Shown: positions 4,236 to 58,088 of the stretch, piece after piece | Position numbering within the stretch: the stretch's first letter is position 1 | How the letters are laid out: each line of letters opens with the position of its first letter | The notes under the pieces: generated by a model | What the model saw: the letters and a program-made list of their open reading frames with translations, nothing else | Told to the model about the DNA's origin: nothing | The model's database searches: none | Translations under genes and position numbers: made by a program | Origin: Dehalococcoidia bacterium | GTDB taxonomy: Bacteria; Chloroflexota; Dehalococcoidia; Lucifugimonadales; UBA826 | Direction of reading: 5' to 3' | NCBI GenBank assembly: GCA_029936675.1 | Contig: JAPYSB010000005.1 | Coordinates: forward strand, 12,104 to 76,103 | Length of the DNA: 64,000 nucleotides

Positions 4236-5417
4236 CTATAGAGCTCTTTCTTCTATCCAGTTAAGATCTACTTCTATTCCAAACCCAGGCGCGTCAGAGG
4301 GTTTTACTCGACCGTTCTTAATAACTGGTGTTCCCGGTAAGGCGACCATTTCTTCTAACGGAACTCCGGGAGGTGATACTCCTTCGGACCTTTCACCCCA
4401 TGGAATTACAGGCATTGAATATGCTAAATGCTGACCATATGGATAATTCATGCCCGCATGTCCTATGACCGTTAGCCCATGAGCTTCGGCTATATGGCAT
4501 ATTCGCACACTTGCAGTGATACCTCCAACCCATTGCACATCTGGTTGAAGTATATCGACTAATCCTCTCCCAGCCGCGTCAGCAAAAGGGTGAATTGTGT
4601 ACCAATGTTCACCTGTGGCTAAGATTTGGCCAGGAACTCTTTGTCTAAGTTTGGCATAGCTATCCATATCTTCAGGGAGCATGTAATCTTCCAGCCATTT
4701 GATGTTGTATGGCTTGAGTGCTTCTGATACACGAACCGCATACTCTATATTTGACGACATCCATGAATCGACAGCCAATTCAATATCTGGGCCTATCTGT
4801 TCTCTAGTATTTGCGACTATTTCCACATTTTTGTTTAGTCCGGCAAGGCCTTCATCAGGCCCGTGTCTGAGAAATACCTTGACGGCTTTGAAACCTAATT
4901 CAAGGAACCAATCCATATAGTCACTGGTTTTGTACCTCAACATGGTGTTTGAGGCATAGCAAAATATATCGTCTTTTACTGGACCTCCTAGAAGTTCATA
5001 AACAGGCTTTTCTAAAAGTTTTCCCTTGAGATCCCATATAGCATTGTCTAATGCACTAATCGCGTAACTTGCTACTCCTGCAGTCCCATATGATGAAGAG
5101 GATCTACGCATCATGTCCCATAATTTTTCAGTAGCCATTGGGTTTTGGCCTACCAAAAGCTCAGAAAAATGATCATTTATTATAGAAACCACAGGTCCAG
5201 ATTGTATTGTGGTTCCTAGTCCCCAAGTTCCGTCTTCAGCTGTTACAACACATGCGACACGATTCCAGTTTGGACCCGACCTGTACTTTATGTCGTATTT
5301 GTATCGATCCATGGGGCTTACAAAATATCCACCATTTGCATCAAGCTCCACTCTCGGCTGTGTTTTGGGATTGGGGCTTAGATTTACTGCTATTGCTTTA
5401 ATACTTTTGATTTTCAC
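4236..5417 (-). CDS. Enolase-superfamily dehydratase (mandelate racemase/muconate lactonizing family, L-rhamnonate-dehydratase-like)
   Basis: 393-aa ORF. The N-terminal capping domain contains 'ALDNAIWDLKGKLLEKPVYELLGG'. Barrel region contains 'LEDYMLPED' and 'ILATGEH'. Confidence 0.8.
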   Translation of the reverse strand: MKIKSIKAIAVNLSPNPKTQPRVELDANGGYFVSPMDRYKYDIKYRSGPNWNRVACVVTAEDGTWGLGTTIQSGPVVSIINDHFSELLVGQNPMATEKLWDMMRRSSSSYGTAGVASYAISALDNAIWDLKGKLLEKPVYELLGGPVKDDIFCYASNTMLRYKTSDYMDWFLELGFKAVKVFLRHGPDEGLAGLNKNVEIVANTREQIGPDIELAVDSWMSSNIEYAVRVSEALKPYNIKWLEDYMLPEDMDSYAKLRQRVPGQILATGEHWYTIHPFADAAGRGLVDILQPDVQWVGGITASVRICHIAEAHGLTVIGHAGMNYPYGQHLAYSMPVIPWGERSEGVSPPGVPLEEMVALPGTPVIKNGRVKPSDAPGFGIEVDLNWIEERAL

Positions 5418-5485: not shown

Positions 5486-6682
5486 TTATTTTCCCTTTAT
5501 CACTTCTGATGAAATTAGTTCTTTAATCTTTTGTTCATCCATTCCCAAAACATTCTTCATCACCTCTGTTGTATGTTCTCCTAATAAAGGAGGATGACTG
5601 GTTGGTTGGGCGGGCGTCCGACTTAAATGTTGAAGAGCGCTACCCAGCAAATCAATTTTACCAAGACTAGGGTGATCTACCTGCCATAGTGAATTTCGAG
5701 CCTTGGCTTGGGGATCCTTAAAGACTTCGTCCAGGGTGTTTATCGATGTAACTGTTAAACCGGCTTCTTGCAACGCAGATATCCAGTGTGATTTGGGCTT
5801 TTCCACAAATTGTGTATTTAATAAACCCTCAAGTTCTTTCCGGTTTTTGACGCGGTCAGCGTTACTTAAAAACCTCGGATCTTCCGCTAGCTCTGGTATT
5901 CCGACTGTTTCACACATTCGACTAAATTGATTGTCATTATTGGCAGCGGTCATGAAATTACCATCTGATGCAGTGAAATCTTGGTATGGAGCAACTTGTG
6001 GGTGCGCATTCCCGATGCGCCCAGGTGCCTCCCCAGTAGCTAGATAGCTTTGAGCTATATTGGCCATACACGCAATTCCAACGTCAAACAACGAGACATC
6101 CACATGCTGACCCTTACCACTCAATGACCGCTCATGGAGGGCCGATAGTATTCCAATGGTAGATGTGAGACCGGTCATTATGTCGACCCATGCAGCTCCA
6201 ACTTTAGTAGGGCCGCCGTCAGTTTCTCCGGTGACACTCATCACCCCAGTCATTGCCTGTAATGCCGCATCATATCCAGGTTCAGGGGCCCTGGGACCTG
6301 TCTGACCGAATCCTGTAACTGAGGCATAAATTATTTGAGGATTTAAAGTAGAAATAGATTCGTAGTCAAGACCAAATCGAGCTAAATTACCTACCTTGAA
6401 ATTTTCTACAAAAACATCGGCTTTTTCGGCCAAATCTTTGATAATTTTCTGACCTTTCTCATCTCTAAGGTTAACTATAATGCTTTTCTTGCCCCGGTTT
6501 GCAGACAAGTAATACGCGCTTTCCTCCCCCATAAAAGGGGGTCCCCATCCTCGCGTATCATCTCCCCATGGAGATTCGACTTTCCAGACCTCGGCTCCAA
6601 GGTCGGCCAGTATCTGGGTTCCAAAGGGTCCAGCAAGTATTCTCGACAAATCTAAGACTTTTAAGTCTTTTAAGGCACTCAT
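5486..6682 (-). CDS. Family III CoA-transferase (CaiB/BaiF type)
   Basis: 398 aa. Motifs 'LKVLDLSRILAGPFGTQILADLGAEV', 'LSANRGKKS' and 'QAMTG..25 aa..', with the catalytic Asp in 'AWVDIMTG'. Confidence 0.9.
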   Translation of the reverse strand: MSALKDLKVLDLSRILAGPFGTQILADLGAEVWKVESPWGDDTRGWGPPFMGEESAYYLSANRGKKSIIVNLRDEKGQKIIKDLAEKADVFVENFKVGNLARFGLDYESISTLNPQIIYASVTGFGQTGPRAPEPGYDAALQAMTGVMSVTGETDGGPTKVGAAWVDIMTGLTSTIGILSALHERSLSGKGQHVDVSLFDVGIACMANIAQSYLATGEAPGRIGNAHPQVAPYQDFTASDGNFMTAANNDNQFSRMCETVGIPELAEDPRFLSNADRVKNRKELEGLLNTQFVEKPKSHWISALQEAGLTVTSINTLDEVFKDPQAKARNSLWQVDHPSLGKIDLLGSALQHLSRTPAQPTSHPPLLGEHTTEVMKNVLGMDEQKIKELISSEVIKGK

Positions 6683-8482: not shown

Positions 8483-8577
8483 ATGAATTTGGCTACCGGG
8501 TTTATTAAATGTATAAGCTCATTCAATTGTATAATCCATGCGGTAATCAGAGAAGTGTTTGGAATTGGAGTTTTTTA

Positions 8578-9399
8578 ATGACTTATACAGACCTAAAACT
8601 TGATCAAGATGGAGAGGTTCTGAAGATAACTGTTGACCGCCCTGAGGTATTGAATGCTCAAAGTAGGATTATGCGTGAAGAGCTGGATGATGCCTTTGAC
8701 AATGCAGCAACTGATGAATCCGTCAAGGTCGTAATTATTGCAGGGTCAGGAGCTAATTTCTCTGCCGGGCATGATTTAGGAAGTCCACAGGAAATGGCCG
8801 ATAGGGAAAAACGCCCCTATTCCCCTGGCACCGCTGGGGAATATGAAAGGAGCTGGCAGCAGAATGTGGCTAATACCTTTCGGTGGAGGGATTTTCCAAA
8901 ACCCACGATAGCTCAAGTTCAAGGTGTATGTATTATGGGGGGGATAATTTTGGCTTCTTCTTGCGATCTAATTGTTGCTTCTCAAGATGCTCGATTTAGT
9001 GATCGTACCGTAAGGTGGGGTGGCCCCCACGTACAATATTTAGGCCTTCCTTATGAAATTGGTATACGGAAGGCAAAAGAGTACCTTTTTACAGGAGATT
9101 GGATGACAGCCATGGAAGCTGAAAAATTAGGACTTGTTAATAAAGTCGTGCCTCTTGAGCAGTTAGAAGAGGAAACAATGAATTTGGCTCAAAGGATAGC
9201 TTTGCAAGACGCGTTTGCCTTAAGGCTGTCAAAAGCCTCATTGAATCAGGTACAGGATCAAATGGGCTATCGAAATAGCATCATGTCAGGATTTCATAAC
9301 CATGCATTAGGCCTGTCATATAGACGAGAAATTTATGATGGTGAAAAAGTGACCTCAATCGAGCGAGCGAGAGAACGTGATAAAAAATTTGGTGATTAA
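8578..9399 (+). CDS. Enoyl-CoA hydratase/isomerase (crotonase) family protein
   Basis: Motifs 'VVIIAGSGANFSAGHDL' and 'PTIAQVQGVCIMGGIILASSCDLIVAS'. I prefer the ATG at 8578 (GGAG 7 nt upstream) over the track start at 8509. Confidence 0.85.
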   Translation: MTYTDLKLDQDGEVLKITVDRPEVLNAQSRIMREELDDAFDNAATDESVKVVIIAGSGANFSAGHDLGSPQEMADREKRPYSPGTAGEYERSWQQNVANTFRWRDFPKPTIAQVQGVCIMGGIILASSCDLIVASQDARFSDRTVRWGGPHVQYLGLPYEIGIRKAKEYLFTGDWMTAMEAEKLGLVNKVVPLEQLEEETMNLAQRIALQDAFALRLSKASLNQVQDQMGYRNSIMSGFHNHALGLSYRREIYDGEKVTSIERARERDKKFGD

Positions 9400-9404
9400 A
9401 GCCT

Positions 9405-11813
9405 ATGGCGCCTTTCTCTAATCTAAAAGTGTTGGATTTGGCCGCAGATTTTGCGGGAAGCTTTTGTACCCGTCTTCTTGGTGATTTTGGTGCCTCTGTA
9501 AAAAAAATTGTTATCAACGATCGAGAAGATCGTTCATCATCATATGGGCCATTCATAAATGATGACCGGGTTCCCAAATCAAGTGCCATGTTCCACTTCA
9601 TGAATTACAACAAACAGGTTGTATCAATTTCTAGCCAATCCGATACCATTCGAGAATTAGCCTTGTCGGCAGATTTATTAGTCGAGGATTTTTCAAATAA
9701 GGAATTGCGGACGTTGGGGCTGAATTTTGCAAATATACGTGATTTAAACCCAGACATCATCATTTGTTCTATGAGTCCATTTGGAAGAGGAACTAAATGG
9801 GAGGAAAAACCATGGAGCGATTTAACGATCCAGGCCATGACAGGGATGTGCAGTGTAAATGGAGACCAAGGGAAATCTCCATTGAAGGAGCCCGGAACAG
9901 AAAGTGAATTTATTACAGGAGCAAACGCTTTTGTAGCCTCGGGTGCTGCCTTAATTAATAGAGATGCCACAGGAATTGCACAGCAGGTAAATGTATCTGT
10001 TTTGAAGTCAGTTTTGCATAGCTACAGCCCATATCTCCTAGCCGCACTGCATACGGGGAATCCCAGACAGCAACAATCCCAAGGACTTCATTTTGGGCTT
10101 GTACCATGTAAAGATGGATACGTGTCACTTAGTGTCCGCCATGAACCTACATGGGAACATATGTGGTTATTTTTTGGCGATCCCCAGTTTGCTCAAAACC
10201 CAAGGTTTGATACAGCTACCAAGAGACGTGAGAATGAAGAAGAGCTTTGTGAAATACTATTTCCAATACTTGCAAATTATTCCCGAAAGGAGCTACTCCA
10301 CGGATTAAGCCCTCTTCGGATTCTGGTTGGCATTGCAAATTCTGTGTCGGACCTACTAGAAGACGAGCATCTAAAATTTAGAAATGCTTTTGTAGAATTT
10401 GATAACGAAGGAAAATTTTGGAAAATGCCTGGGGCACCTTTTCAGATGTCACTGACACCATGGGAATTTAAAGGTGAGCTGTCTTCAAAAGATTTTTCGG
10501 TTTGGGATCACTCGGCAAACGGTATCAGTAACCCCCCCCCGAATTCTATGGGAGCACAAAGAACAAAAGGTCCTCTTTCAGGAATGAGGGGCGTTGTATT
10601 AACACAAGCCTGGGCAGGTGCTTATAGTACTCAGCTTCTTTCGGATTTAGGAATGGAAATTATACAGGTGGAGTCTGTCACTCGCATTGATCCCTGGCGG
10701 GGTGGAGTTCCCCCTAAACTAGCAGGCTTGTATCCAGAATCAGATCCAGGAGATAGACCGTGGGATAGAAATGCTCTTTATAATGGCGTGAATCGGGGTA
10801 AGAAGGCGATAACTCTTGACCTTAACCATTCAGAATCAAAAGATGCATTTATGGAATTGGTATCGATAAGTGACGTGGTTGTAGAGAACTTTTCTGGAAG
10901 GGTAATAAGTAATTTGGGGTTAGATTATGATTCCCTCAGGTCTGTAAACCCTTCAATAGTTATGGTTAGAATGCCAACTTATGGGACTAGTGGACCCTAT
11001 TCAAATTATGCTGGGAATGGTGGTACAACAGAGCCGGTGTCTGGGATGTCCTACCTTATGGGGTACCGGGACGGACCACCAATAAATTCTGGAATAATGC
11101 ACACTGATGCTTATAGCGGTGTTTTAGCGTGTGGTGCCACGATATCTGCTTTAAGAGAGAGAGTGATTTCTGGGTCAGGTCAGGAGATAGATATCTCTCA
11201 ACAGGAAGCGAGTATGACCCTTTTAGCTGAATATATTATGGAAGGCTCGATCTCGGGGACCTCCCCCATGAGACAAGGCAATAGCAACAGAGACTATGCA
11301 CCTCAGGGGTGCTACCGTGCAAAGGATTCTATCTGGGTAGCTATCTCTGTAAAAACGAATGATCACTGGAGGTCTTTTTGCCGATCTTTAGGGTTGGAGG
11401 ATTTATTTGCCAAGGACGATTATGCGACCAAAGATTCCAGAATAAGAAATGCAATTCAATTGGATAGGGAGATATCTCAATGTATTAGTAAATATGTGTC
11501 TGAGAATGTTGTTCAAAAATTACAGATCGCGTTGGTGCCATGTGAGAAAATTTTGACTTTATTAGAAGCCGCAGAAAATAATGACTTTCACGAAATGAAA
11601 TTATTTGAAAAAATAACTCACCCTGAGTCAGGAAGTTTTGATTACCCGGTACCTCCATGGGATTTTGAATCTACACCGGTCCAACCTCAAGAACCAGCCC
11701 CTACATTAGGCCAACACTCTGAAGAAGTGTTTAGAGACCTCAACGGGTGGTCTGAAAGTGAAATAATACGATTTAAAAACCTTCAATTAACAGGAACGGA
11801 CCCTTTAATTTAA
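9405..11813 (+). CDS. Tandem-fused double family III CoA-transferase (two complete CaiB/BaiF domains)
   Basis: 802 aa. Domain 1 covers about aa 1-370 ('LKVLDLAADFAGSFCTRLLGDFGASV'). Domain 2 covers about aa 390-802 ('VVLTQAWAGAYSTQLLSDLGMEIIQVES', 'NRGKKA'). The linker is '..ANGISNPPPNSMGAQRTKG..'. Confidence 0.85.
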   Translation: MAPFSNLKVLDLAADFAGSFCTRLLGDFGASVKKIVINDREDRSSSYGPFINDDRVPKSSAMFHFMNYNKQVVSISSQSDTIRELALSADLLVEDFSNKELRTLGLNFANIRDLNPDIIICSMSPFGRGTKWEEKPWSDLTIQAMTGMCSVNGDQGKSPLKEPGTESEFITGANAFVASGAALINRDATGIAQQVNVSVLKSVLHSYSPYLLAALHTGNPRQQQSQGLHFGLVPCKDGYVSLSVRHEPTWEHMWLFFGDPQFAQNPRFDTATKRRENEEELCEILFPILANYSRKELLHGLSPLRILVGIANSVSDLLEDEHLKFRNAFVEFDNEGKFWKMPGAPFQMSLTPWEFKGELSSKDFSVWDHSANGISNPPPNSMGAQRTKGPLSGMRGVVLTQAWAGAYSTQLLSDLGMEIIQVESVTRIDPWRGGVPPKLAGLYPESDPGDRPWDRNALYNGVNRGKKAITLDLNHSESKDAFMELVSISDVVVENFSGRVISNLGLDYDSLRSVNPSIVMVRMPTYGTSGPYSNYAGNGGTTEPVSGMSYLMGYRDGPPINSGIMHTDAYSGVLACGATISALRERVISGSGQEIDISQQEASMTLLAEYIMEGSISGTSPMRQGNSNRDYAPQGCYRAKDSIWVAISVKTNDHWRSFCRSLGLEDLFAKDDYATKDSRIRNAIQLDREISQCISKYVSENVVQKLQIALVPCEKILTLLEAAENNDFHEMKLFEKITHPESGSFDYPVPPWDFESTPVQPQEPAPTLGQHSEEVFRDLNGWSESEIIRFKNLQLTGTDPLI

Positions 11814-11818
11814 TATAC

Positions 11819-13033
11819 TTGATTGAAATGACTCAAAAACAAATAGTAAATACACAAATTAGCGAGATTATTTCTAAGGCTTCGGAATTTTTAGAACTTA
11901 CTGATAAAGAAGTTCTCTCACTGGGTAACTATTCAGAAGATCACATAGATGATCTATGCCGTGCTGCATCTAGCATCAGAGATTACGGGAAAGGAAGAAC
12001 AGTCACTTTTTCTCCTAAAGTTTTCATTCCATTGACGAGACTGTGTCGTGATTACTGTGGGTATTGCACGTTTAGGGTAGACCCTGATCAGACAGAAAAT
12101 CTATATATGAGCCCCGCAGAAGTGCTGAATGTGGCAAAGGCGGGAGAAAATTTGGGGTGTACAGAGGCTTTATTTACTCTTGGGGAACGACCAGAATTAA
12201 AGTATGTCGAAGCCAAGAAATGGCTTTCACTTCATGGTTATGACAGCACCTTGGACTATTTGAGCGCTATGACAGAACTGGTAGTGAAAGAGACGAAACT
12301 TTTACCTCACGCCAATCCGGGAACAATGACTCACAGAGAGCTAAACACTTTGAAAGATTCAAACCCCTCAACCGGATTAATGTTGGAAAGTACCAGTGAA
12401 CTTCTTTATCAGGTCGGAGGGCCTCATGAATTTGCCCCAAGTAAGAGGCCGATTGTGAGGTTAAAAACAATTTCGATAGCTGGGGAATTGCGAATTCCAT
12501 TTACCACCGGTTTGCTTATAGGTATAGGGGAAACTATGACAGATAGAATGGAGTCTCTGTTAGAAATTAGGAATATACAGCGAAAGTTTCATCACATACA
12601 GGAGGTAATAATTCAAAATTTTAGAGCGAAGCCAGAGACACCGATGGCAGAATCTCCCGATGCTGAAACTACAGAAATGCTGTGGACTGTTGCTGCTGCG
12701 CGGCTTATTTTAGGCCCTAGTGCCAACATACAAGTGCCGCCAAACCTTAGTTCGGAGAACTACGAGGTTTATTTGAAGGCTGGTATAAATGACTGGGGTG
12801 GGGTTTCTCCTTTGACAATCGATTATGTTAATCCTGAAGCACCGTGGCCTCTCATAACCAACCTGAAATCAAAAACAGAGTCAGCAGGATTTGAATTGCG
12901 GCCAAGATTGGCGGTATACCCAGAGTATTTCCTTGATACTGATGAATACTTACCAGTAGACTTGCTTACAAAGGTGAGAGAATTGGCTGACGATGAAGGA
13001 TATGTAAAGGACGGTATTAACAGGTATGTCTGA
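11819..13033 (+). CDS. cofG: 7,8-didemethyl-8-hydroxy-5-deazariboflavin (FO) synthase subunit 1, radical SAM
   Basis: Radical-SAM cluster motif 'CRDYCGYCTF', with typical CofG length and context. The start could be TTG 11819 or ATG 11828. Confidence 0.8.
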   Translation: MIEMTQKQIVNTQISEIISKASEFLELTDKEVLSLGNYSEDHIDDLCRAASSIRDYGKGRTVTFSPKVFIPLTRLCRDYCGYCTFRVDPDQTENLYMSPAEVLNVAKAGENLGCTEALFTLGERPELKYVEAKKWLSLHGYDSTLDYLSAMTELVVKETKLLPHANPGTMTHRELNTLKDSNPSTGLMLESTSELLYQVGGPHEFAPSKRPIVRLKTISIAGELRIPFTTGLLIGIGETMTDRMESLLEIRNIQRKFHHIQEVIIQNFRAKPETPMAESPDAETTEMLWTVAAARLILGPSANIQVPPNLSSENYEVYLKAGINDWGGVSPLTIDYVNPEAPWPLITNLKSKTESAGFELRPRLAVYPEYFLDTDEYLPVDLLTKVRELADDEGYVKDGINRYV

Positions 13034-14336
13034 TATTGAATCAAATGATTTAAATGTGGACTTTTCGGGTATTTTGGCTTCGATAGATCCGGAAATATCT
13101 CGTGTTTTAAAAGTTGCGATTGCCGGTGGTGATATTTCAGCGTCAGATGCCTGTCTGCTTCTGGATTCCAATGGATTAGAGTACAACGCTACAGTGTTGG
13201 TTGCCGATGTTTTGCGTAGAAGGACTGTGGGAGATGTCGTGACATATGTTGTAAATAGAAACATTAATTTCACTAATGTCTGTATAAAGAGATGTGGATT
13301 CTGCGCATTTAGTAGAGATTTCAGGCAAGAAGAAGGTTATCTATTACCAGTGGAGGAAATAGTCCGTCGATCAAAAGAGGCATGGGATTATGGAGCCACT
13401 GAGGTATGTATACAGGCAGGCCTACCACCTCAAATGGAAGGAGATTTGTACATTCGGCTATGTGAGGCAATAAAAGCTGAACTTCCAGATATTCATATTC
13501 ATGGTTTTTCCCCTGAAGAGGTTCTTTATGGATCAATCCGATCTAAGACATCCATAAGGCAACACCTTAGTGATCTTAAAGACGCAGGTGTCGGAAGTTT
13601 GCCAGGCACCTCAGCAGAGATATTGGATCAGGCCTTAAGGGATAAAATATCCCCGGGCCGTATAACTAAAGATCAATGGATCGAGGTCATAACGACAGCC
13701 CATGAACTGGGTATACAAACTACATCTACTGTGATGTTTGGTCATGTGGAGACAAATCTGCAAATTGCCGAACATATTGATATTATTCGGAACATACAGA
13801 TGGAAACGGGCGGGTTTACAGAATTCGTACCGTTGAGTTTTGTGAACTCTGAAGCCCCTATGTTTCTTAAAGGGTTAATCCCTAATGTTAGAACTGGACC
13901 TACCGGTATGGATGTGGTGAAGGTCCATGCTGTCGCGAGAATCATGTTGAATAATTGGATTCCAAACATTCAGGCCTCTTGGGTTAAAGAGGGAGACCGA
14001 ATTTCTCAATTACTACTTACCGCAGGGGTAAATGATTTGGGGGGTACTTTAATTAACGAAAGTATTTCTACATCCGCAGGGGCTCAACACGGTCAGTTAA
14101 TGAAGCCTTCCCAGTTCAGAGACATGATACGGGATGCAGGAAGGCTACCGGCAGAAAGATTCACAAATTATAGTTTGAGAAAGGTATATGACAAGTCGGA
14201 TAACGAGAAAGATCCGTTAGATCTACTGGAAGATAACGTAGAGGAAATATTTGGTTCGTACAATAAGCTCATTGAGATGGAAAATTTCCGATTTGAGCAC
14301 CCACGAAAGGTCGCCGAAAGAACTGCTGGTGTATGA
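13026..14336 (+). CDS. cofH: FO synthase subunit 2, radical SAM
   Basis: Radical-SAM motif 'CIKRCGFCAF'. It is paralogous to the preceding gene and overlaps cofG by 8 nt, which suggests translational coupling. Confidence 0.8.
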   Translation: MSDIESNDLNVDFSGILASIDPEISRVLKVAIAGGDISASDACLLLDSNGLEYNATVLVADVLRRRTVGDVVTYVVNRNINFTNVCIKRCGFCAFSRDFRQEEGYLLPVEEIVRRSKEAWDYGATEVCIQAGLPPQMEGDLYIRLCEAIKAELPDIHIHGFSPEEVLYGSIRSKTSIRQHLSDLKDAGVGSLPGTSAEILDQALRDKISPGRITKDQWIEVITTAHELGIQTTSTVMFGHVETNLQIAEHIDIIRNIQMETGGFTEFVPLSFVNSEAPMFLKGLIPNVRTGPTGMDVVKVHAVARIMLNNWIPNIQASWVKEGDRISQLLLTAGVNDLGGTLINESISTSAGAQHGQLMKPSQFRDMIRDAGRLPAERFTNYSLRKVYDKSDNEKDPLDLLEDNVEEIFGSYNKLIEMENFRFEHPRKVAERTAGV

Positions 14337-50652: not shown

Positions 50653-51849
50653 TTAGCTGAATACAGCCTTCGCACCCATCAATAGTTTGATCTCATCTTT
50701 TGAGTACCCAATTTCCTCGAGGATATCTTCAGAGTCTGCACCAGGAATCCTTCCTAACGTTCTTATGGAGCCTGGGGTATTCATTAGCTTAGATCCAATT
50801 CCTACCTGGGTTATAGGGTCACCATCTATAGTTCCAGCTTGAATAAACATATCTCTAGCTTTGGAATGCGGGTCTCCGATCACTTCATCAAAGTCGTAAA
50901 CTGGCGCTGCTGCGATGTCTTTAGTTTTTCTGAACAAATCCCACCATTCATCCCTTTTTTTGGTCATAAATATGGTTTTGAGGTTCTGCATGATTTCAGC
51001 GTATTTCTCAGTGTCGTGCTGGCTGTCGGAAAACTTATTTAATCCTAAAGTTAGGCAAAGATTCCGCCAGAAATTGGGCTCTATACAACCAAGGCTTATG
51101 TATTTGCCGTCTTCACATTCAAAAACGTTATAATATGGCACCCCTCCATTCAAAGTCATTTGTCCAGGCTTTGGAACTGTTCCTGATCTAAAGTATTCAC
51201 CTGATATTGACGATAAGAGATACGTCACACCATCTGACATTGATATATCTATTTGTTGTCCTTCACCGGTGTTTGTTCGAGAAAAAAGTGCACATACTAT
51301 CGAGAATGCTGCATTCATTCCTCCCGCTGCAAAATCAGCAATAATGTTGTAGGGAATCGAAGGTCTATCGTCCTCAGTCCCAATTAAGCCGAGGGCCCCA
51401 CCAATGGAAATATAGTTCACATCATGTCCCACCAAATCTTTGTACGGTCCAGTTTGTCCATACCCAGAGATCGAACAATAAATTATTGATGGATTGATTT
51501 TCTTTATAGTTTCGTAGTCGCAACCCAGCCTATTTACCACCCCAGGTCTAAAGCCTTCAATGAATATATCAGCATCTCGGCATATCTGGTGAAGTACCTC
51601 TATTCCGACTTCTTTTTTTAGGTCTAGAATGATGCTTCGTTTGTTGCGATTGAGAGGATTTGTTGCTGCTATCTTTCTGTTTTGGGGATCATTCGAGGTT
51701 TTATTTGCTATTATCCTGGCTGTTGGGGGCGCGTCTACCTTAATTACATCAGCTCCCATATCACCAAGCATCATAGAGCAAAAAGGGCCTGGTGCCATCC
51801 TACTCAAATCAACTATTTTTATGCCATCCAATGCGGTTTTAGTTATCAA
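50653..51849 (-). CDS. Family III CoA-transferase (Asp type)
   Basis: 398 aa. Motifs 'IKIVDLSRMAPGPFCSMMLGDMGADVIKV' and 'NRNKRS', with the catalytic Asp in 'NIIADFAAGG'. It overlaps the upstream gene by 4 nt. Confidence 0.9.
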   Translation of the reverse strand: MITKTALDGIKIVDLSRMAPGPFCSMMLGDMGADVIKVDAPPTARIIANKTSNDPQNRKIAATNPLNRNKRSIILDLKKEVGIEVLHQICRDADIFIEGFRPGVVNRLGCDYETIKKINPSIIYCSISGYGQTGPYKDLVGHDVNYISIGGALGLIGTEDDRPSIPYNIIADFAAGGMNAAFSIVCALFSRTNTGEGQQIDISMSDGVTYLLSSISGEYFRSGTVPKPGQMTLNGGVPYYNVFECEDGKYISLGCIEPNFWRNLCLTLGLNKFSDSQHDTEKYAEIMQNLKTIFMTKKRDEWWDLFRKTKDIAAAPVYDFDEVIGDPHSKARDMFIQAGTIDGDPITQVGIGSKLMNTPGSIRTLGRIPGADSEDILEEIGYSKDEIKLLMGAKAVFS

Positions 51850-53102
51850 AAAGATTGCTCCAGTACGCCTTCATTTAATAGGGTTTGGACTTCTGATGAC
51901 CCCATAGAAAGTATCTCTGTCAATATTTCTTTGTTGTCTTCTCCAACCATTGCTTGTGCTCGAGTTAGTTTGCCGGGAGTTTCTGAAAGTTGGAATTGCA
52001 GTCCATCGTATGGCATAGGCCCAACCTCAGTGTGGCGAAGCCATTGGAAAAACCCCTGATGCTCAAGCTGAGGGTCCTCCCACATATCAGACTGGCTTTG
52101 TACCATCCCCGAGGGTATTTTGTGGGACTGAAGTAAGTTCATTATGGATCTCGATTCGTCTCGTGAAGTCCAGGCGGTAATTAAATGATCAATCCGATCC
52201 CTATCAGATTTTCTTTCTTTTAAATTTTGATCTGATGTTTCTTTGCTAAGATTCAATAATTTTGCGAAATCTAACCACTGTGCTTCTGTTCTTATTGCTA
52301 TGGCAATCCACGATTCTGTAATGTCGGTGAGGGATCTTTTATGATCAAGGCACCGGTATATACCATGCGGGTACATTTCATCATCTTCATTCCCTTTTCG
52401 CTCTAAAATTGACCCATCTTCGTTATATTTCATGATGTGTGGTGAGAGAAAATGCATAGCTCCTTCATATTGTGATAGGTCAATATGCTGGCCTCTCCCA
52501 TGCCTGTCTCTATAATCGAGTGCTGCAACTATCGAACCAAAAGCCACTGGCGGATTGAGGAAATCTGAATATGCCCCATAAGGTCCAGCGGGACCCCTGT
52601 CAGGCCATCCGGTGATTTCATAAAACCCTGCCATTGCTCCGGCCAGTTGGCCATATCCTGCATAGTTATTATGTGGTCCGAATTGCCCCATTAAACAGGT
52701 ACTAAAATAAATTACATCAGGCAACAGTTTTTTTATAGAAACGTAATCAAGCTCCCATGACTTCATAACTCGTGGTGTGAAACTTTCCGCTATTACATCC
52801 GGTTTCCATTTGCTGATGAGGTTTCTAATCAGTTGTCTAGATTGGGGGATTGCTAAATTGAGTCCAAGGTTTCTTTTGTTTGAATTGTAGTTACCGCTGA
52901 ACTGGCTTCTATTTATTCCTGGAATCCCGTCTTTAAATGGTGGCGCTCCCCTTAAAACGTCAGGTTTGCTAACCGATTCTATTTTTATTACGTCGGCTCC
53001 GTGGTCGGCCAAATATTTAGTCGTGATTGGACCTACACCGACCCATGTAAAATCTAAAACTTTTAAGCCATTAAAAAGGATGTTTTGTGTCCTCTCTGCC
53101 AC
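51846..53102 (-). CDS. Family III CoA-transferase (Asp type, 'NYAG' subtype)
   Basis: 418 aa. Motifs 'LKVLDFTWVGVGPITTKYLADHGADVIKIES' and 'GPHNNYAGYG', with Asp in 'GAYSDFLNP'. Its GTG start shares one nt with the upstream stop (TAGTG). Confidence 0.9.
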   Translation of the reverse strand: MAERTQNILFNGLKVLDFTWVGVGPITTKYLADHGADVIKIESVSKPDVLRGAPPFKDGIPGINRSQFSGNYNSNKRNLGLNLAIPQSRQLIRNLISKWKPDVIAESFTPRVMKSWELDYVSIKKLLPDVIYFSTCLMGQFGPHNNYAGYGQLAGAMAGFYEITGWPDRGPAGPYGAYSDFLNPPVAFGSIVAALDYRDRHGRGQHIDLSQYEGAMHFLSPHIMKYNEDGSILERKGNEDDEMYPHGIYRCLDHKRSLTDITESWIAIAIRTEAQWLDFAKLLNLSKETSDQNLKERKSDRDRIDHLITAWTSRDESRSIMNLLQSHKIPSGMVQSQSDMWEDPQLEHQGFFQWLRHTEVGPMPYDGLQFQLSETPGKLTRAQAMVGEDNKEILTEILSMGSSEVQTLLNEGVLEQSF

Positions 53103-54361
53103 TATATAACCTCTTCTTTTTCTAGCTTTTCAATTTGAGCCAGACTTAAACCGATATCTTTGAATATTTCCTCGTTATCACCCCCAATAGATGGTGAAGG
53201 AAAAAATATTTTTAAAGGTGTCTCGGACATTTTCATATAAGGGCCCAGATGGGTTATGTTCCGGCTAAATTCGGGGTGATATATATCCAACCAAAATGAT
53301 CTAGCCTCTAGCTGTGGGCTTTTTCTAATATCCTCTACCGTGTTGCAAGGAGCGAGTAAAAGTTTTGCTTCGAGAGCTTTTCCGAAAATTTTGTGTTTGG
53401 TTTTCTTTGATAGAAAACTTTCTATTGTTTTTTCAACCCTTTTAAACTCAGTTGCGTCCTTTCCATGTGGATCGCTATCAGGCTTTAATTCCCACTCATC
53501 CATATCGAATTCAAGAATTTCCTTTTCCACCTCTATTTCTTCGGATATCCATGCTAGAAGTCCCTTTAGTGTTTTAGCCTGCGCGTTCATGCTTACATAA
53601 CCGTCAGCGCATTTGAAAACGTGTCGGGCATCAATAGGACCTCTTTTTCTAAAAGCCCCTGTTCTGGTTACATCGGTACCGTGGAGTTTTGGGAATGGAG
53701 TTGCATTCATCAGAGTCCACATCACAGAAATTTGCTCTGACACATCCACATGCTGGCCGATTTTATAATTTCTACTATGTCTCAAAGCAGCTACAGTCGC
53801 TCCAAATGCCTGGGACCCTGCTACAAGTTCAGCTTGCGGGAAACTTATTCTTACGGGGGGGCGGTCTTCATCACCACTGATAAAGGGCATCCCACCCATA
53901 GCAGAAGAAATTAGGTCAGTAGATACAAAGCCGGCATAGGGCCCAGTAGGACCAAAAGGTGTCATAGTGGTATGTACTAGTTGGGGATTGCGGTCTATTA
54001 AGGTTTCGTATCCGATATTCAGTGAATCTAGGTATTTTGGCTGGAAGGATTCTAGGATGGCATCGGATTGATCAACTAATTTTAGAAAAACTTGTCTGCC
54101 GGCTTCAGTATCAAGAGCAAGTGAAATACCTTTTTTGTTGGAGTTGTAAGCTGCCCAATATAAACTTTTGGGGCTTCCGTCGGAATCAAGCGCAAACGGT
54201 CCTCGGAGTCTGGTTTGGCTACCTTTCGGGGGTTCGATCCTTATGACATTGGCGCCCATGTCTCCCAACAGACGACCACAGATGTTATGGCCACCTTCAG
54301 ATAAATCCAATACGGTATATGGGAACAAAGCACCTTGGAACGGAGGATTTAAAGATGCCAT
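53102..54361 (-). CDS. Family III CoA-transferase homologue with Glu at the catalytic-Asp position
   Basis: 419 aa. Motifs 'YTVLDLSEGGHNICGRLLGDMGANVIRIE' and 'NSNKKG'. The aligned active-site segment reads 'FPQAELVAG'. Confidence 0.85.
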   Translation of the reverse strand: MASLNPPFQGALFPYTVLDLSEGGHNICGRLLGDMGANVIRIEPPKGSQTRLRGPFALDSDGSPKSLYWAAYNSNKKGISLALDTEAGRQVFLKLVDQSDAILESFQPKYLDSLNIGYETLIDRNPQLVHTTMTPFGPTGPYAGFVSTDLISSAMGGMPFISGDEDRPPVRISFPQAELVAGSQAFGATVAALRHSRNYKIGQHVDVSEQISVMWTLMNATPFPKLHGTDVTRTGAFRKRGPIDARHVFKCADGYVSMNAQAKTLKGLLAWISEEIEVEKEILEFDMDEWELKPDSDPHGKDATEFKRVEKTIESFLSKKTKHKIFGKALEAKLLLAPCNTVEDIRKSPQLEARSFWLDIYHPEFSRNITHLGPYMKMSETPLKIFFPSPSIGGDNEEIFKDIGLSLAQIEKLEKEEVI

Positions 54362-54399
54362 TCGGTTGGAAACCTCCGCGTATGACTGAACCTACTGAA

Positions 54400-55587
54400 C
54401 TAAGCTCGAGGCAATCCCAAACCTCTATTTGCTATGATGTTTCTCTGGATTTCAGAAGTGCCAGCGGCAATGGTAGAGGAAATTGAGCTTAAATACATTT
54501 TTTGGACAGCCCCGGCCAGAGGGGAGAGATGTGATTCATGGGAAAGTAAACCTTTCATGTCTATTATATTCATGGCTGTATTGGCCACTCTTTGTACCAA
54601 TTCTGCACCAAATAATTTTGACATTGACGCTTCAGAGTTTGGAACCATGCCATTACTTTGCATCCAGGCAACCCTGTAAGACATGGCTCGGGAGACCTCA
54701 GTTTCGATATGCCGTTCAGCTAGTCTATTTCTAATTACCTGATTTTCAGACAGTGGTTTGCCATTTTTCTTTTCTGACTTGACATAATCTGTGAGGGCCT
54801 CAAGTATTCTTCGTGAATTTGCCGAGAAGCCGACTCCTGATCTTTCAAAGTCCAAAGCAACTGCCAGTGTGTACCAACCTCGGTTTTCCTCCCCAACAAG
54901 GTTTCTTGATGGAATCCTAACGTCTTCAAAAAAAACTTCATTAAACTCATGAGATCCTGCCATGTTGTATATCGGTCGAACTGTAACACCAGGGGTTTGC
55001 ATATCCACCATAAACAAACTGATTCCCCTATGTTTTGGAGCTTCTGAGTCAGTTCTGGCTGCTAGCCAACCATAGTCAGCAATATGAGCTGAACTGGTCC
55101 ATATTTTCGACCCGTTTATTACATAATCATCTCCATCTTTTATTGCTTGAGTTTGAAGTGATGCGAGATCCGATCCTGATCCAGGTTCACTGTACAGGGT
55201 GCACCAATACCTATCACCATCTCCGATTGGGGGTAGATGTTCTTTTCTCTGATCATGTGTTCCGGCGATCATCAAAGTGGGGCCTACCCAGCTAATTGCA
55301 CCTGTACCTAGGTCGGTACCAGGCACATCACGATAAGTCATTTCTTCCCGGTAAATTAATTGCTCCATGATTGAGCGGCCTTGGCCTCCGTACTCCTCAG
55401 GCCAAGCCATGGTTAACCAACCCTTTTTAGCGAGTTTTTTGGCCATGGATTTGGTAAAAGGTAAATTGTCCTGTGAAAAATGATTTGCCGGAGAGAGAGA
55501 ATTCCAATCCTCAGGTAATTCCTCTTCTAGAAATTCTAAAAGATCGCTTCTGAAGGACTCTTCTTTTTCTGTAAATGTGTACTGCAT
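54400..55587 (-). CDS. Acyl-CoA dehydrogenase
   Basis: 395 aa. Motifs 'YSEPGSGSDLASL', 'INGSKIWTS' and the C-terminal 'AAGTSEIQRNIIA'. Confidence 0.9.
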   Translation of the reverse strand: MQYTFTEKEESFRSDLLEFLEEELPEDWNSLSPANHFSQDNLPFTKSMAKKLAKKGWLTMAWPEEYGGQGRSIMEQLIYREEMTYRDVPGTDLGTGAISWVGPTLMIAGTHDQRKEHLPPIGDGDRYWCTLYSEPGSGSDLASLQTQAIKDGDDYVINGSKIWTSSAHIADYGWLAARTDSEAPKHRGISLFMVDMQTPGVTVRPIYNMAGSHEFNEVFFEDVRIPSRNLVGEENRGWYTLAVALDFERSGVGFSANSRRILEALTDYVKSEKKNGKPLSENQVIRNRLAERHIETEVSRAMSYRVAWMQSNGMVPNSEASMSKLFGAELVQRVANTAMNIIDMKGLLSHESHLSPLAGAVQKMYLSSISSTIAAGTSEIQRNIIANRGLGLPRA

Positions 55588-55678
55588 AGACCATTATTTT
55601 GAGGAAAGTTTGACGGACAATATTCTGGAATCCTACTATATAAAGGTATCGGAAAGGAACATTCGGTGCCCAGTACAC

Positions 55679-56467
55679 TTAAAGCTTTCCGGGCATTCCT
55701 CCATCGACATTTATTATTTCCCCTGTAATAAATCTAGAATCACTAGATACTAAGAACAACACTGTATTAGCTACATCATCGGGATACCCAGGCCCATCCA
55801 GTATTTGAATGAAGTCGAATGCTCCTTTAAGAGAATGGTTTCCTCCTCCCACATCAGTTAAGGGAGTGATGATTTGACCTGGTCGTACCCCATTCACTCT
55901 AATATTGTGCTGGCCTCCCATACCGGCAGCGTATCGGGTAAAAGCATCAACGCCTGCTTTGGCAGCGTAATAAGATGACGAAGGACCTCGCCCTACGAGA
56001 TCGTACATGTTTTTACTGAAACCTCTTTGAGCGGCGAGAGACGACATGTTTACGATGCGTCCCCGTCCCGATTCGATCAAATGGGGCCAAACAGCACGGC
56101 ATACATAAAAGGTTCCATTTAAATTTACGGCAATCACCCTTTCCCAACCTTCGTCTGTTTCGTTTGGGAAATTTCCTTTATCCCCACCACCTGCGTTGTT
56201 AAATAGAACACTTATTTTCCCGTACGTTGAGACAACATTATTGATTACTTCATCAATTTGATTTCGATCAGCGACGTCACATTGGAAAAATTTCGCTTCT
56301 CCACCTGATGCGTTTATAGCAGATTCGACTTCCTTTCCCTCTTTTTCTCTTCTGGCTAGTAACGCGACCTTCGCCCCTTCTTTAGCGAATAAATGGGCTG
56401 TGGCTTCTCCTATTCCACTATTACCACCTGTCACGATTGCTACATCCCCTTCTAGTTTATTTCCCAT
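55679..56467 (-). CDS. Short-chain dehydrogenase/reductase (SDR)
   Basis: Motifs 'VTGGNSGIGEA' and 'NNAG', with catalytic 'YYAAK'. Confidence 0.9.
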   Translation of the reverse strand: MGNKLEGDVAIVTGGNSGIGEATAHLFAKEGAKVALLARREKEGKEVESAINASGGEAKFFQCDVADRNQIDEVINNVVSTYGKISVLFNNAGGGDKGNFPNETDEGWERVIAVNLNGTFYVCRAVWPHLIESGRGRIVNMSSLAAQRGFSKNMYDLVGRGPSSSYYAAKAGVDAFTRYAAGMGGQHNIRVNGVRPGQIITPLTDVGGGNHSLKGAFDFIQILDGPGYPDDVANTVLFLVSSDSRFITGEIINVDGGMPGKL

Positions 56468-56600: not shown

Positions 56601-58088
56601 TCAGGGATCTTTGGTTGTCGTATTGGCTCTTGGCAGCCCGTTCTCTCTTTTAGGTGCCTTATCTGGAACAGAATTCTGATTAACTGAAGGATGGTCTGAT
56701 ATCAGTTCTGGCAAATGATCGTCGAGGAAATTCGTGTTTACATTACCGGACAGAAAATCAGGGTGTGACATGAGCTTCAAATGGAACTCAATATTAGTTT
56801 CAACTCCGGATATCTCAAATTCTTTTAATGCCCTTTTTGATCGAATCACTGCGTCGAGGAAACTATTGGAATTGGAGTGGCATATGAGTTTTGCAATAAG
56901 AGAATCAAATGCCCTACTAGTCTCGTACCCAGAGTATGCGAATCCATCAGTCCTAATTCCTGGCCCCTCCGGGGGACAATAGGTGGTTATTTTTCCGGCT
57001 GAAGGTTTTATTTGCCCCGAATCAGAGATAGTTTCGCAGTTGATTCTATTTTGTATTGCGTAACCTCGGACAATAGTTGGTTTGTCCGCGTCAAGCCCTA
57101 GTTCAGTTAAGCTAGTTCCGGCTGCTAATTTAATTTGAGACTGGACAATATCTACCCCGGTTACTTCCTCCGTTACTGTATGTTCGACCTGCAGTCTGGC
57201 GTTCCCTTCTATGAAGACAAACGAGTCGTATTCAGATTGGGTACTTTGGAATACTAAAAATTCAAAAGTGCCTAGATTGGAATAATCAACACTCTTGGCA
57301 AGATTCATAGCGGATTCAATAATTTTACCGCGCAGGGTTTCGGTAATAAAAGGGGCTGGAGCAACTTCCACTAGTTTCTGGTATCTTCGCTGGATACTGC
57401 ATTCTCTTTCCCAGAGATGCGTCACATTGCCGAAATTGTCTCCTATTATCTGAACTTCAATGTGTCTAGCGTTTTCTATGAGCTGCTCAGCATATAAATC
57501 GCCATTACCAAAGCTCCTTTTCGCTTCAGATTGGCAGCGTTTAAACAGTCTTTCTATTTCTGATGAATTGCTTATCGATCTTGTTCCTCTTCCTCCTCCT
57601 CCTGCTACTGCCTTGAGCATCATCCGGCTATCTTTTGGAAGCGTGTTGAAAAACGCTCTGGCTGACTCAATAGTAATAGGCCCTTCTACCCCTGCTGGTA
57701 TTGGAAGGCCGGCGTTTTTCGCTGCCAACCTCGCTCGTCCTTTATCTCCGAACAGTTCCAGCATTTCGATATTTGGTCCGATAAATACGATCCCCTCTTT
57801 TTGGCACCTTTTAGCAAACTCAGCGTTTTCGGCTAAAAACCCGTACCCAGGATGTATGGAGTCTGCGCCAGATTTCTTGGCAATTCTTATTATGTTGTCA
57901 ATATCTAAATAACCGGGTACTCCATTTCCATCCAATTGGAAAGTTGCACCTGTATTTCGAATATGAAGCGATGATTTATCGTCATTCGAGTATATAGAAA
58001 CAGTATTAATATTTAGCTCTGAGGCTGCTCTGGCAATTCGAATTGCGATTTCCCCTCGATTGGCTATCAGCAATTTATTAAATGTCAT
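56601..58088 (-). CDS. Biotin carboxylase (ATP-grasp) subunit, stand-alone
   Basis: Motifs 'LLIANRGEIAIRIARA', 'HPGYGFLAEN', 'KAVAGGGGRG' and 'IEGNARLQVEHTVTEEVTGVDIV'. No biotinyl (xMKM/L) domain. Confidence 0.85.
   Translation of the reverse strand: MTFNKLLIANRGEIAIRIARAASELNINTVSIYSNDDKSSLHIRNTGATFQLDGNGVPGYLDIDNIIRIAKKSGADSIHPGYGFLAENAEFAKRCQKEGIVFIGPNIEMLELFGDKGRARLAAKNAGLPIPAGVEGPITIESARAFFNTLPKDSRMMLKAVAGGGGRGTRSISNSSEIERLFKRCQSEAKRSFGNGDLYAEQLIENARHIEVQIIGDNFGNVTHLWERECSIQRRYQKLVEVAPAPFITETLRGKIIESAMNLAKSVDYSNLGTFEFLVFQSTQSEYDSFVFIEGNARLQVEHTVTEEVTGVDIVQSQIKLAAGTSLTELGLDADKPTIVRGYAIQNRINCETISDSGQIKPSAGKITTYCPPEGPGIRTDGFAYSGYETSRAFDSLIAKLICHSNSNSFLDAVIRSKRALKEFEISGVETNIEFHLKLMSHPDFLSGNVNTNFLDDHLPELISDHPSVNQNSVPDKAPKRENGLPRANTTTKDP

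Follow-up and report, generated by a model that had tools for sequence, protein, structure and literature searches.

Three consecutive genes of one CoA-transferase family, the first of them without the aspartate that serves this family as nucleophile, raise the question of how many enzymes such a gene string encodes. The arrangement is found in a stretch of 64,000 nucleotides from a Dehalococcoidia bacterium (Chloroflexota; contig JAPYSB010000005.1), which is referred to below as the window. According to the list of open reading frames (ORFs) of the window, five ORFs lie on the minus strand between positions 50653 and 56467. These encode a short-chain dehydrogenase/reductase (SDR), an acyl-CoA dehydrogenase (ACAD) and three proteins, A, B and C, each with a full-length, significant match to CoA_transf_3 of the family III superfamily (PF02515). 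In the conserved Asp column of this family, B and C carry Asp (Asp180 and Asp172, respectively), and A carries Glu178. An original prediction, made from the letters of the sequence, had proposed that A and B form a heteromeric CoA-transferase within a β-oxidation-like operon. Its coordinates for the five ORFs and its family assignments agreed with the ORF list and Pfam. As set out below, the A/B pair most likely encodes a two-subunit enzyme resembling the benzylsuccinate CoA-transferase BbsEF, and gene C appears to encode a racemase-like protein rather than a third transferase.

Similarity of A and B to the two chains of BbsEF

Family III enzymes are interlocked dimers, and their conserved nucleophile is Asp169 in Frc and CaiB. 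When A and B were compared with the Protein Data Bank (PDB), the best match of A was 9fn0_A, chain A of BbsEF (1.7e-45), and the best match of B was 9fn0_B (2e-67). The preference of each protein for a different chain was evident in BLASTP comparisons. A scored 172 bits against BbsEF chain A, 105 bits against chain B and 96-116 bits against its paralogues in the window. B scored 238 bits against chain B, 92 bits against chain A and 149 bits against the second domain of an 802-aa two-domain CoA-transferase that is encoded elsewhere in the window. Profiles of the two families gave the same picture, with 339 bits for chain A versus 187 bits for chain B on the A-family profile, and 378 bits for chain B versus 140 bits for chain A on the B-family profile. 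Several homologues of A carry the JGI name 'BbsE subunit'. For SmtA and SmtB, the succinyl-CoA:(S)-malate CoA-transferase of Chloroflexus, our literature search yielded metallothionein papers only. Thus, as in BbsEF, two adjacent genes encode two paralogous family III subunits, each nearest to a different chain, and the gene for the Asp-less subunit comes first.

The residue states follow the same division. Counted along the alignment, residue 178 of BbsEF is Asp in chain B only (NYTD178H), where it aligns with Asp180 of B, and PDB entry 9fol bears the title 'BbsEF, D178-CoA adduct + succinate'. In chain A, residue 178 is Ala, and Tyr171 occupies the nucleophile column, opposite Glu178 of A. 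Glu178 in turn aligns with the Asp of the canonical family III enzyme 4ed9 in HMMER, and MAFFT agrees, so that the predicted placement of Glu in A and Asp in B at the nucleophile column was borne out. In both systems the nucleophile Asp is therefore confined to one type of subunit, the B/F-type chain. Based on the chain-specific similarity and the residue alignment to BbsEF, we regard B as the catalytic-type subunit of a known kind of heteromer, and A as its partner type without the Asp.

Split and fused forms of the pair in related genomes

A further line of evidence came from 80 related loci, which were collected with a pattern scan at one genome per species; ORFs were called for each locus and classified against reference proteins. 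The scan pattern was derived from an alignment of 13 sequences with Glu in the column (E-type), a broader alignment of 37 sequences having no sufficiently conserved block, and the 80 loci are consequently skewed towards the E-type clade. All of these loci, as well as the nearest homologues, belong to metagenome-assembled genomes of the Dehalococcoidia/SAR202 group (Chloroflexota).

At 48 of the 80 loci, A and B formed one continuous ORF of ~835-850 aa, with the A domain followed by the B domain. The two genes were separate, adjacent and in the order A then B at 20 loci, A was present without B nearby at seven, and the remaining five loci were cut by a contig end. At 17 of the 20 split loci the gap between the genes measured -4 to +5 nt, while values outside this range were found at L012 (-229), L070 (+23), L077 (+20) and L034 (+171, a probable frameshift). 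A 1-nt overlap of A and B like that of the window was present in L001-L003, and 4-nt overlaps were present in L007 and L008. The fused form is also represented in the protein database by more than 100 distinct proteins of 826-869 aa, which stem from independent gene calls and in some cases from complete long-read chromosomes.

That these proteins are orthologues of the pair is illustrated by the fused protein P0127, the first half of which shares 49% identity with A (394 bits) and the second half 59% with B (523 bits). In the fusions, the C-terminal helix of A gives way to a poorly conserved, low-complexity linker of ~25 residues, after which the chain resumes with the conserved 'MPF.G.KVLDFTWVG', the Met being kept at the start of the B domain. 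The retained Met, seen in P0127 as 'MPFDGIKVLDF' around residues ~400-425, may be left over from the start codon of a once separate B gene, or could possibly serve as an internal start. In a neighbour-joining tree of the A domains, split and fused clades were interleaved, and the split clade of the window was sister to a large fused clade. Since this tree carries no support values, we conclude from it only that the split or fused state changed more than once.

An AlphaFold2 model of P0127, built on a 61-sequence alignment, reached a pLDDT of 91.8 and a pTM of 0.93 and was disordered only at the linker (residues 404-419). A Foldseek search with this model returned the BbsEF chains B/D as best matches (TM 0.94, 37% identity), together with chain A (TM 0.85), which means that the fused orthologue superposes on both chains of the heteromer. 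An interlocked topology of the fused protein is suggested by the high pTM in combination with what is known of the family. Judged from these sequence comparisons, the orthologous A+B fusions are the true Rosetta stone for the pair. Together with the compact model, they argue indirectly for a physical heteromer of A and B, which supports this part of the original prediction, albeit with BbsEF chain matches and orthologous fusions in place of the in-window fusion from which it had been argued.

Conceivably, A and B could instead be two independent homodimeric enzymes with different substrates that are mere neighbours in an operon. Most characterised family III enzymes are homodimers, SAR202 genomes contain dozens of CaiB/BaiF paralogues (PMC5395668), and A stands alone at seven loci. 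However, A lacks the nucleophile Asp, the A-then-B fusion occurs at 48 of the 80 loci and in more than 100 distinct proteins, the genes overlap or nearly abut at 17 of the 20 split loci, and each of the two proteins finds its best match in a different chain of the same solved heteromer. The homodimeric Frc, YfdW, CaiB, SUGCT and Mct do have the Pfam family and fold of A and B, but they pair identical subunits and have two active sites, whereas here the subunits differ and only one of them has the Asp. We therefore regard a pair of independent homodimers as very unlikely.

The seven loci at which A was alone (L029, L031, L036, L041, L049, L073 and L078) each carried an E-type A without an adjacent B, in surroundings of housekeeping genes. 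In L029, for instance, the neighbours encode an aldo/keto reductase, SelB, a HemN-like radical-SAM protein and YchF. The expectation that the Glu-type gene is always adjacent to its partner was thus not upheld, as A was alone at seven of the 75 assessable loci.

The two-domain CoA-transferase encoded elsewhere in the window

The in-window evidence for a heteromer had been drawn from the 802-aa protein mentioned above, which has two CoA_transf_3 domains and is encoded on the plus strand. This protein, its two domains and all seven peptide motifs quoted in the original prediction were found where it had placed them, and the order of a Glu-bearing unit followed by an Asp-bearing one is indeed the same in the gene pair and in the single-chain versions. 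The 802-aa protein could accordingly be seen as the fused counterpart of A+B, with a Glu clade that is always paired with a partner of the NYAG type and with three transferases in the operon. Apart from the common polarity, this idea can draw on the motif GP(H/Y)..Y.G.G, which B, fusion domain 2 and BbsEF chain B have in common, and on an AlphaFold2 model (pTM 0.92) in which the two domains of the 802-aa protein form one compact unit and the linker, residues 353-386, is disordered.

The similarity scores, however, did not agree with it. For these comparisons a fifth family III CoA-transferase gene of the window (5486-6682, minus strand), encoding an ordinary single-domain Asp-type protein beside an enolase-superfamily gene (4236-5417), served as a generic paralogue control. 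In BLASTP, A scored 96 bits against fusion domain 1, less than against B, C, fusion domain 2 or the control and thus the lowest score among the paralogues in the window. On the A-family profile, fusion domain 1 was likewise the lowest of all domains tested, with 156 bits versus 231 bits for the control. On the B-family profile, fusion domain 2 reached 242 bits, which is no better than the 248 bits of the control. The motif 'C.RLLGD.GA.V', by which A had been likened to fusion domain 1, proved to be family-wide and not specific, gene C showing CSMMLGDMGADV. Hence the split proteins do not each find their closest match in the corresponding fusion domain, the comparison failing for A and domain 1. 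As, in addition, the third gene is MCR-like (α-methylacyl-CoA racemase-like; see below) and A occurs alone at seven loci, the proposal that the 802-aa protein is the counterpart of the pair is largely refuted by these comparisons, and we consider it highly improbable.

Among 116 members of the family of the 802-aa protein, the column in domain 1 contained Glu in 110, Gln in three, Ala in two and Asp in one, and domain 2 had Asp in all 116. The same polarity at low scores points to a genuine parallel between two independent lineages and not to orthology; by its sequence the 802-aa fusion is an independent, distant SAR202 lineage that has no specific relationship to A or B. Its gene starts 5 nt after an enoyl-CoA hydratase gene (8509-9399, plus strand) and is followed by two radical-SAM genes (11819-14336, plus strand), one of which is CofH/MqnC-like.

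Variation at the nucleophile column of A

Whether Glu178 marks a catalytic type of its own, as had been supposed, was judged from the variation at this column. Among 77 orthologues of A, the residue was Glu in 68, Asp in five and Gln in four; the corresponding column of B was Asp in 67 of 68 orthologues. The Asp forms of the A domain ('PQADFH') occurred in the fused orthologues L051, L053, L056, L057 and L059, which could have two live sites, and the Gln forms in L024, L035, L063 and L064. A wider alignment of 120 homologues with eight reference or paralogue domains contained Glu in 46, Tyr in 28, Trp in 22 and Phe in 15 sequences, and also Ala, Cys, Ser, His, Met, Asn and Asp. The four Asp in this alignment belonged to B, fusion domain 2, the 5486-6682 transferase and a single homologue (P0048). 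In each of four sampled BbsE-like homologues of the Tyr, Trp or Phe type, a BbsF-like gene bearing the Asp was located directly downstream. Since Gln is tolerated in this column, as are aromatic residues in relatives, a covalent nucleophile at this position is unlikely. On the strength of these alignments the 'Glu type' is not supported as a catalytic class, the A-side column is degenerate, and A is probably a member of the fold family and not of the catalytic class. Most simply, the large domain of B and the small domain of A would make up one live site, and the other site would be degenerate. The numbers of near-invariant positions in the small domains of A and B were alike and so did not help to place the live site.

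Alternatively, both sites could be functional, with Glu178 of A as nucleophile or general base, for instance in a combination of a transferase site with an isomerase- or lyase-type site. Glu is the nucleophile in family I CoA-transferases. In the 13-sequence E-type alignment it is invariant down to 41% identity, five fused orthologues have Asp in the column, A keeps the other family III motifs (GA.VI.VE, N.NK, ESF.P and G.GQ.VDVS), and the independent fusion family of the window also favours Glu in domain 1 (110/116). These points are to be set against the presence of Gln in four orthologues and of Gln or Ala in the fusion family, the Tyr, Trp or Phe of wider BbsE-like homologues and the Tyr of BbsEF chain A. 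Moreover, the sole CoA adduct named in the BbsEF entries is that of Asp178 in the other chain, and the conserved Asp is described as necessary for family III catalysis (PMC9196870). Our literature search returned no activity report for the D169E variant of formyl-CoA transferase, a mutant known from the title of PDB entry 1vgr alone. On balance, we judge two functional sites to be unlikely.

A related idea takes the Glu, Asp or Gln site of A as a second CoA-ester site that performs a lyase- or isomerase-type step as in DddD, which would make the pair a bifunctional class specific to the catabolism of refractory organic acids in SAR202. DddD of Endozoicomonas, a dimethylsulfoniopropionate (DMSP) CoA-transferase/lyase, has two family III domains in one chain (1-416 and 439-821; PMC7174347), a tandem architecture that recurs in the 802-aa protein and in the orthologous A+B fusions. 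Among the CoA-transferases of SAR202, Landry et al. recorded proteins with DddD as top hit (PMC5395668). In contrast to DddD, however, A and B of the window are encoded by two ORFs that a stop codon divides, the name DddD was absent among the matches listed in our searches, and nothing here points to DMSP. A bifunctional enzyme of this kind strikes us as improbable.

Gene C and the upstream dehydrogenase genes

The third gene had been taken for a canonical Asp-type transferase. It does have the Asp, but its seven best PDB matches were α-methylacyl-CoA racemases (MCR), including 8rmw/1x74 (2.5e-69, residues 6-339). Furthermore, its GHDVNY (His142) and IIADF (Asp172) motifs align with the catalytic pair of MCR, where the first motif reads GHD(V/I)NY. 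In the M. tuberculosis enzyme we take this pair to be His126/Asp156. C thus agrees with MCR in both active-site residues and overall similarity, although it is ~35 residues longer at the C-terminus and is encoded right after a transferase pair. Gene C follows A/B at 45 of the 68 loci that have both genes, and the His and Asp are invariant in its 45-46 orthologues there. We infer that C is racemase-like and would have racemase activity.

The best PDB matches of the ACAD were 4x28_A (8e-73) and Tcur3483, each a subunit of a heteromeric acyl-CoA dehydrogenase for steroid side chains with 2-methyl-branched acyl-CoAs as substrates. Among the NCBIfam models, the PimC large subunit came nearest to the ACAD, with a score under the cut-off of that model. 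The ACAD gene directly precedes A/B at 16 of the 68 loci. No second ACAD gene was present in the window, while L007-L010 carry one after gene C. For the SDR, the PDB matches were generic (the (3R)-hydroxyacyl-CoA dehydrogenase domain 2et6, 2e-40; BbsD, 7e-34), and its synteny with the operon was retained only in the closest relatives, L001-L006.

The presence of an ACAD and an SDR recalls the bbs operons, in which BbsG and BbsCD have these roles (PMC10818641). From the benzylsuccinate pathway context as a whole (bss genes, BbsG, BbsH, BbsCD and BbsAB), however, the operon has an ACAD and an SDR only. Of the proposed β-oxidation-like route, the CoA-transferase, ACAD and SDR are thus in place and a hydratase and a thiolase are absent from the operon, so that the term covers no more than activation, probable epimerisation and dehydrogenation. 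Likewise, without hydratase, thiolase or glycyl-radical enzyme the operon suggests a BbsEF-like way of working and not a benzylsuccinate enzyme. Further differences from BbsEF concern the proteins themselves, with an identity of only 30-34% and Glu in A as opposed to Tyr in chain A. They also concern the gene context, in which genes for benzylsuccinate synthase, hydratase and thiolase are missing and an MCR-like gene is attached, the fusion of the subunits in most relatives, and the host, an aerobic marine SAR202 bacterium as opposed to an anaerobic toluene degrader. The substrate of A/B almost certainly differs from that of BbsEF.

Proposed function of the A/B enzyme

Taken as a whole, the observations are best explained by a heteromeric, BbsEF-type family III CoA-transferase in which A and B serve as the two unlike subunits, and we consider this explanation likely. 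Asp180 of B would be the nucleophile that forms the acyl-anhydride and CoA-thioester intermediates. Having lost its Asp (Glu178), A would most likely be an obligatory interlocking partner with an inactive site of its own, the small domain of which closes and shapes the active site of B, so that each A/B pair would have one complete site. With the genes overlapping so closely, the subunits would tend to be made in equal amounts, and in most related lineages both are joined in a single polypeptide. The product of gene C would most likely epimerise the α-carbon of the CoA ester made by A/B, which the upstream ACAD, and in close relatives also the SDR, would then oxidise. Through this module, a 2-substituted (α-chiral) acid with one or two carboxyl groups would enter the metabolism of SAR202 without the use of ATP. 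The group is known for its great expansion of CaiB/BaiF-type CoA-transferases, with dozens of paralogues per genome, for which a role in channelling refractory organic acids into oxidation at no ATP cost has been proposed (PMC5395668). The proposed architecture and mechanism of the enzyme are probable in our view, while any particular substrate would be a doubtful choice.

Several observations weigh against this explanation. As to the substrate, the ORF list and Pfam showed no enoyl-CoA hydratase, thiolase or glycyl-radical enzyme in the operon, and no protein reached an equivalog cut-off in NCBIfam. Regarding the subunits, our literature search found no paper on the BbsEF structure, which means that the chain roles are taken from PDB titles and alignments. 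Although B is fused or adjacent to A at 68 of the 75 assessable loci, the seven loci with A alone indicate that A-type proteins may sometimes act alone or with a partner encoded elsewhere. Finally, A keeps nearly all other family motifs, its Glu is conserved to ~40% identity and five orthologues have Asp in its place, so that the A-side site may not be simply dead.

If the explanation holds, some SAR202 CoA-transferase genes appear to encode half-enzymes that work only in pairs or fusions, which would correct both paralogue counts and annotations such as 'CaiB-like' or 'CoA transferase'. SAR202 bacteria are abundant in the deep ocean. The pairing also shows which genes need to be co-expressed for biochemistry, and the linkage to a racemase-like gene and to an ACAD related to heteromeric ACAD subunits points to α-branched or α-substituted acids as substrates. 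In addition, with its repeated split and fused states the pair amounts to a natural experiment on the evolution of pseudo-symmetric heterodimers out of homodimers. Current understanding is not overturned by these findings. The heteromeric BbsEF-like design with a single catalytic subunit is already known; the widespread single-chain form and the conserved racemase-like companion gene seem to be undescribed in the literature that we searched.

Gene layout and neighbourhood

The features of the gene string are collected in Table 1.

Table 1. Positions of the operon genes, key codons and junctions, with the two-domain comparator, in the window
Feature	Position	Strand	Description
SDR	55679-56467	-	262 aa, Pfam adh_short
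Acyl-CoA dehydrogenase (ACAD)	54400-55587	-	395 aa, Pfam N, M and C domains
Gene A	53102-54361	-	419 aa, Pfam CoA_transf_3 7.4e-70, BbsE-like subunit, Glu178
Gene B	51846-53102	-	418 aa, Pfam CoA_transf_3 6.5e-84, BbsF-like putative catalytic subunit, Asp180
Gene C	50653-51849	-	398 aa, Pfam CoA_transf_3 5.6e-96, α-methylacyl-CoA-racemase-like, His142 and Asp172
Glu178 codon of gene A	53828-53830	-	column of the family III nucleophile Asp
Asp180 codon of gene B	52563-52565	-	predicted nucleophile
A/B junction TAGTG	53100-53104	-	A stop and B start share one base (53102)
B/C junction TTGA	51846-51849	-	TGA stop of B, TTG start of C, 4-nt overlap
802-aa two-domain CoA-transferase (comparator, outside the operon)	9405-11813	+	Glu168 in domain 1, Asp568 in domain 2

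Both overlaps, that of 1 nt within TAGTG and that of 4 nt between B and C, had been described in the original prediction and were confirmed by reading the sequence, the coding strand being ...ATA TAG TG... at the A/B junction and ...TTT TGA TAA... at the B/C junction. The GTG of gene B is the sole start codon that preserves the conserved N-terminus of B. A Shine-Dalgarno-like site, GAAGAGG, is located ~8 nt upstream of the A/B junction, and a GGAG-type site precedes the start of C. The intergenic gaps measure 38 nt between the ACAD gene and A and 91 nt between the SDR and ACAD genes. A scan for promoters and terminators returned fewer sites than in shuffled sequence and thus yielded no operon boundaries.

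The gene order of the window recurred in L001, where it comprises genes for a biotin carboxylase, the SDR, the ACAD, A, B and C, followed by a PNPOx-like gene on the opposite strand and a GFO-family oxidoreductase gene. In the window, the biotin carboxylase gene (56601-58088, minus strand) lies 133 nt upstream of the SDR gene and encodes a stand-alone protein of 495 aa with its highest similarity to the N-terminal part of pyruvate carboxylase. Genes for a carboxyltransferase or a biotin carrier were absent from the operon and the neighbours scanned (40445-63920). We considered the biotin carboxylase gene as a member of the operon and rejected it, since it was kept in L001 and L005 only. The remaining content of the window is typical of SAR202, with genes for enolase-superfamily proteins, TPP enzymes, luciferase-like monooxygenases and SDRs. 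In L002-L004 and L006, a second BbsE-like/BbsF-like pair adjoins the A/B locus upstream of the SDR gene, in the place of the biotin carboxylase gene. Second pairs of this kind were also present next to A/B in L069, L071, L074 and L076 (6.6-9.4 kb, minus strand).

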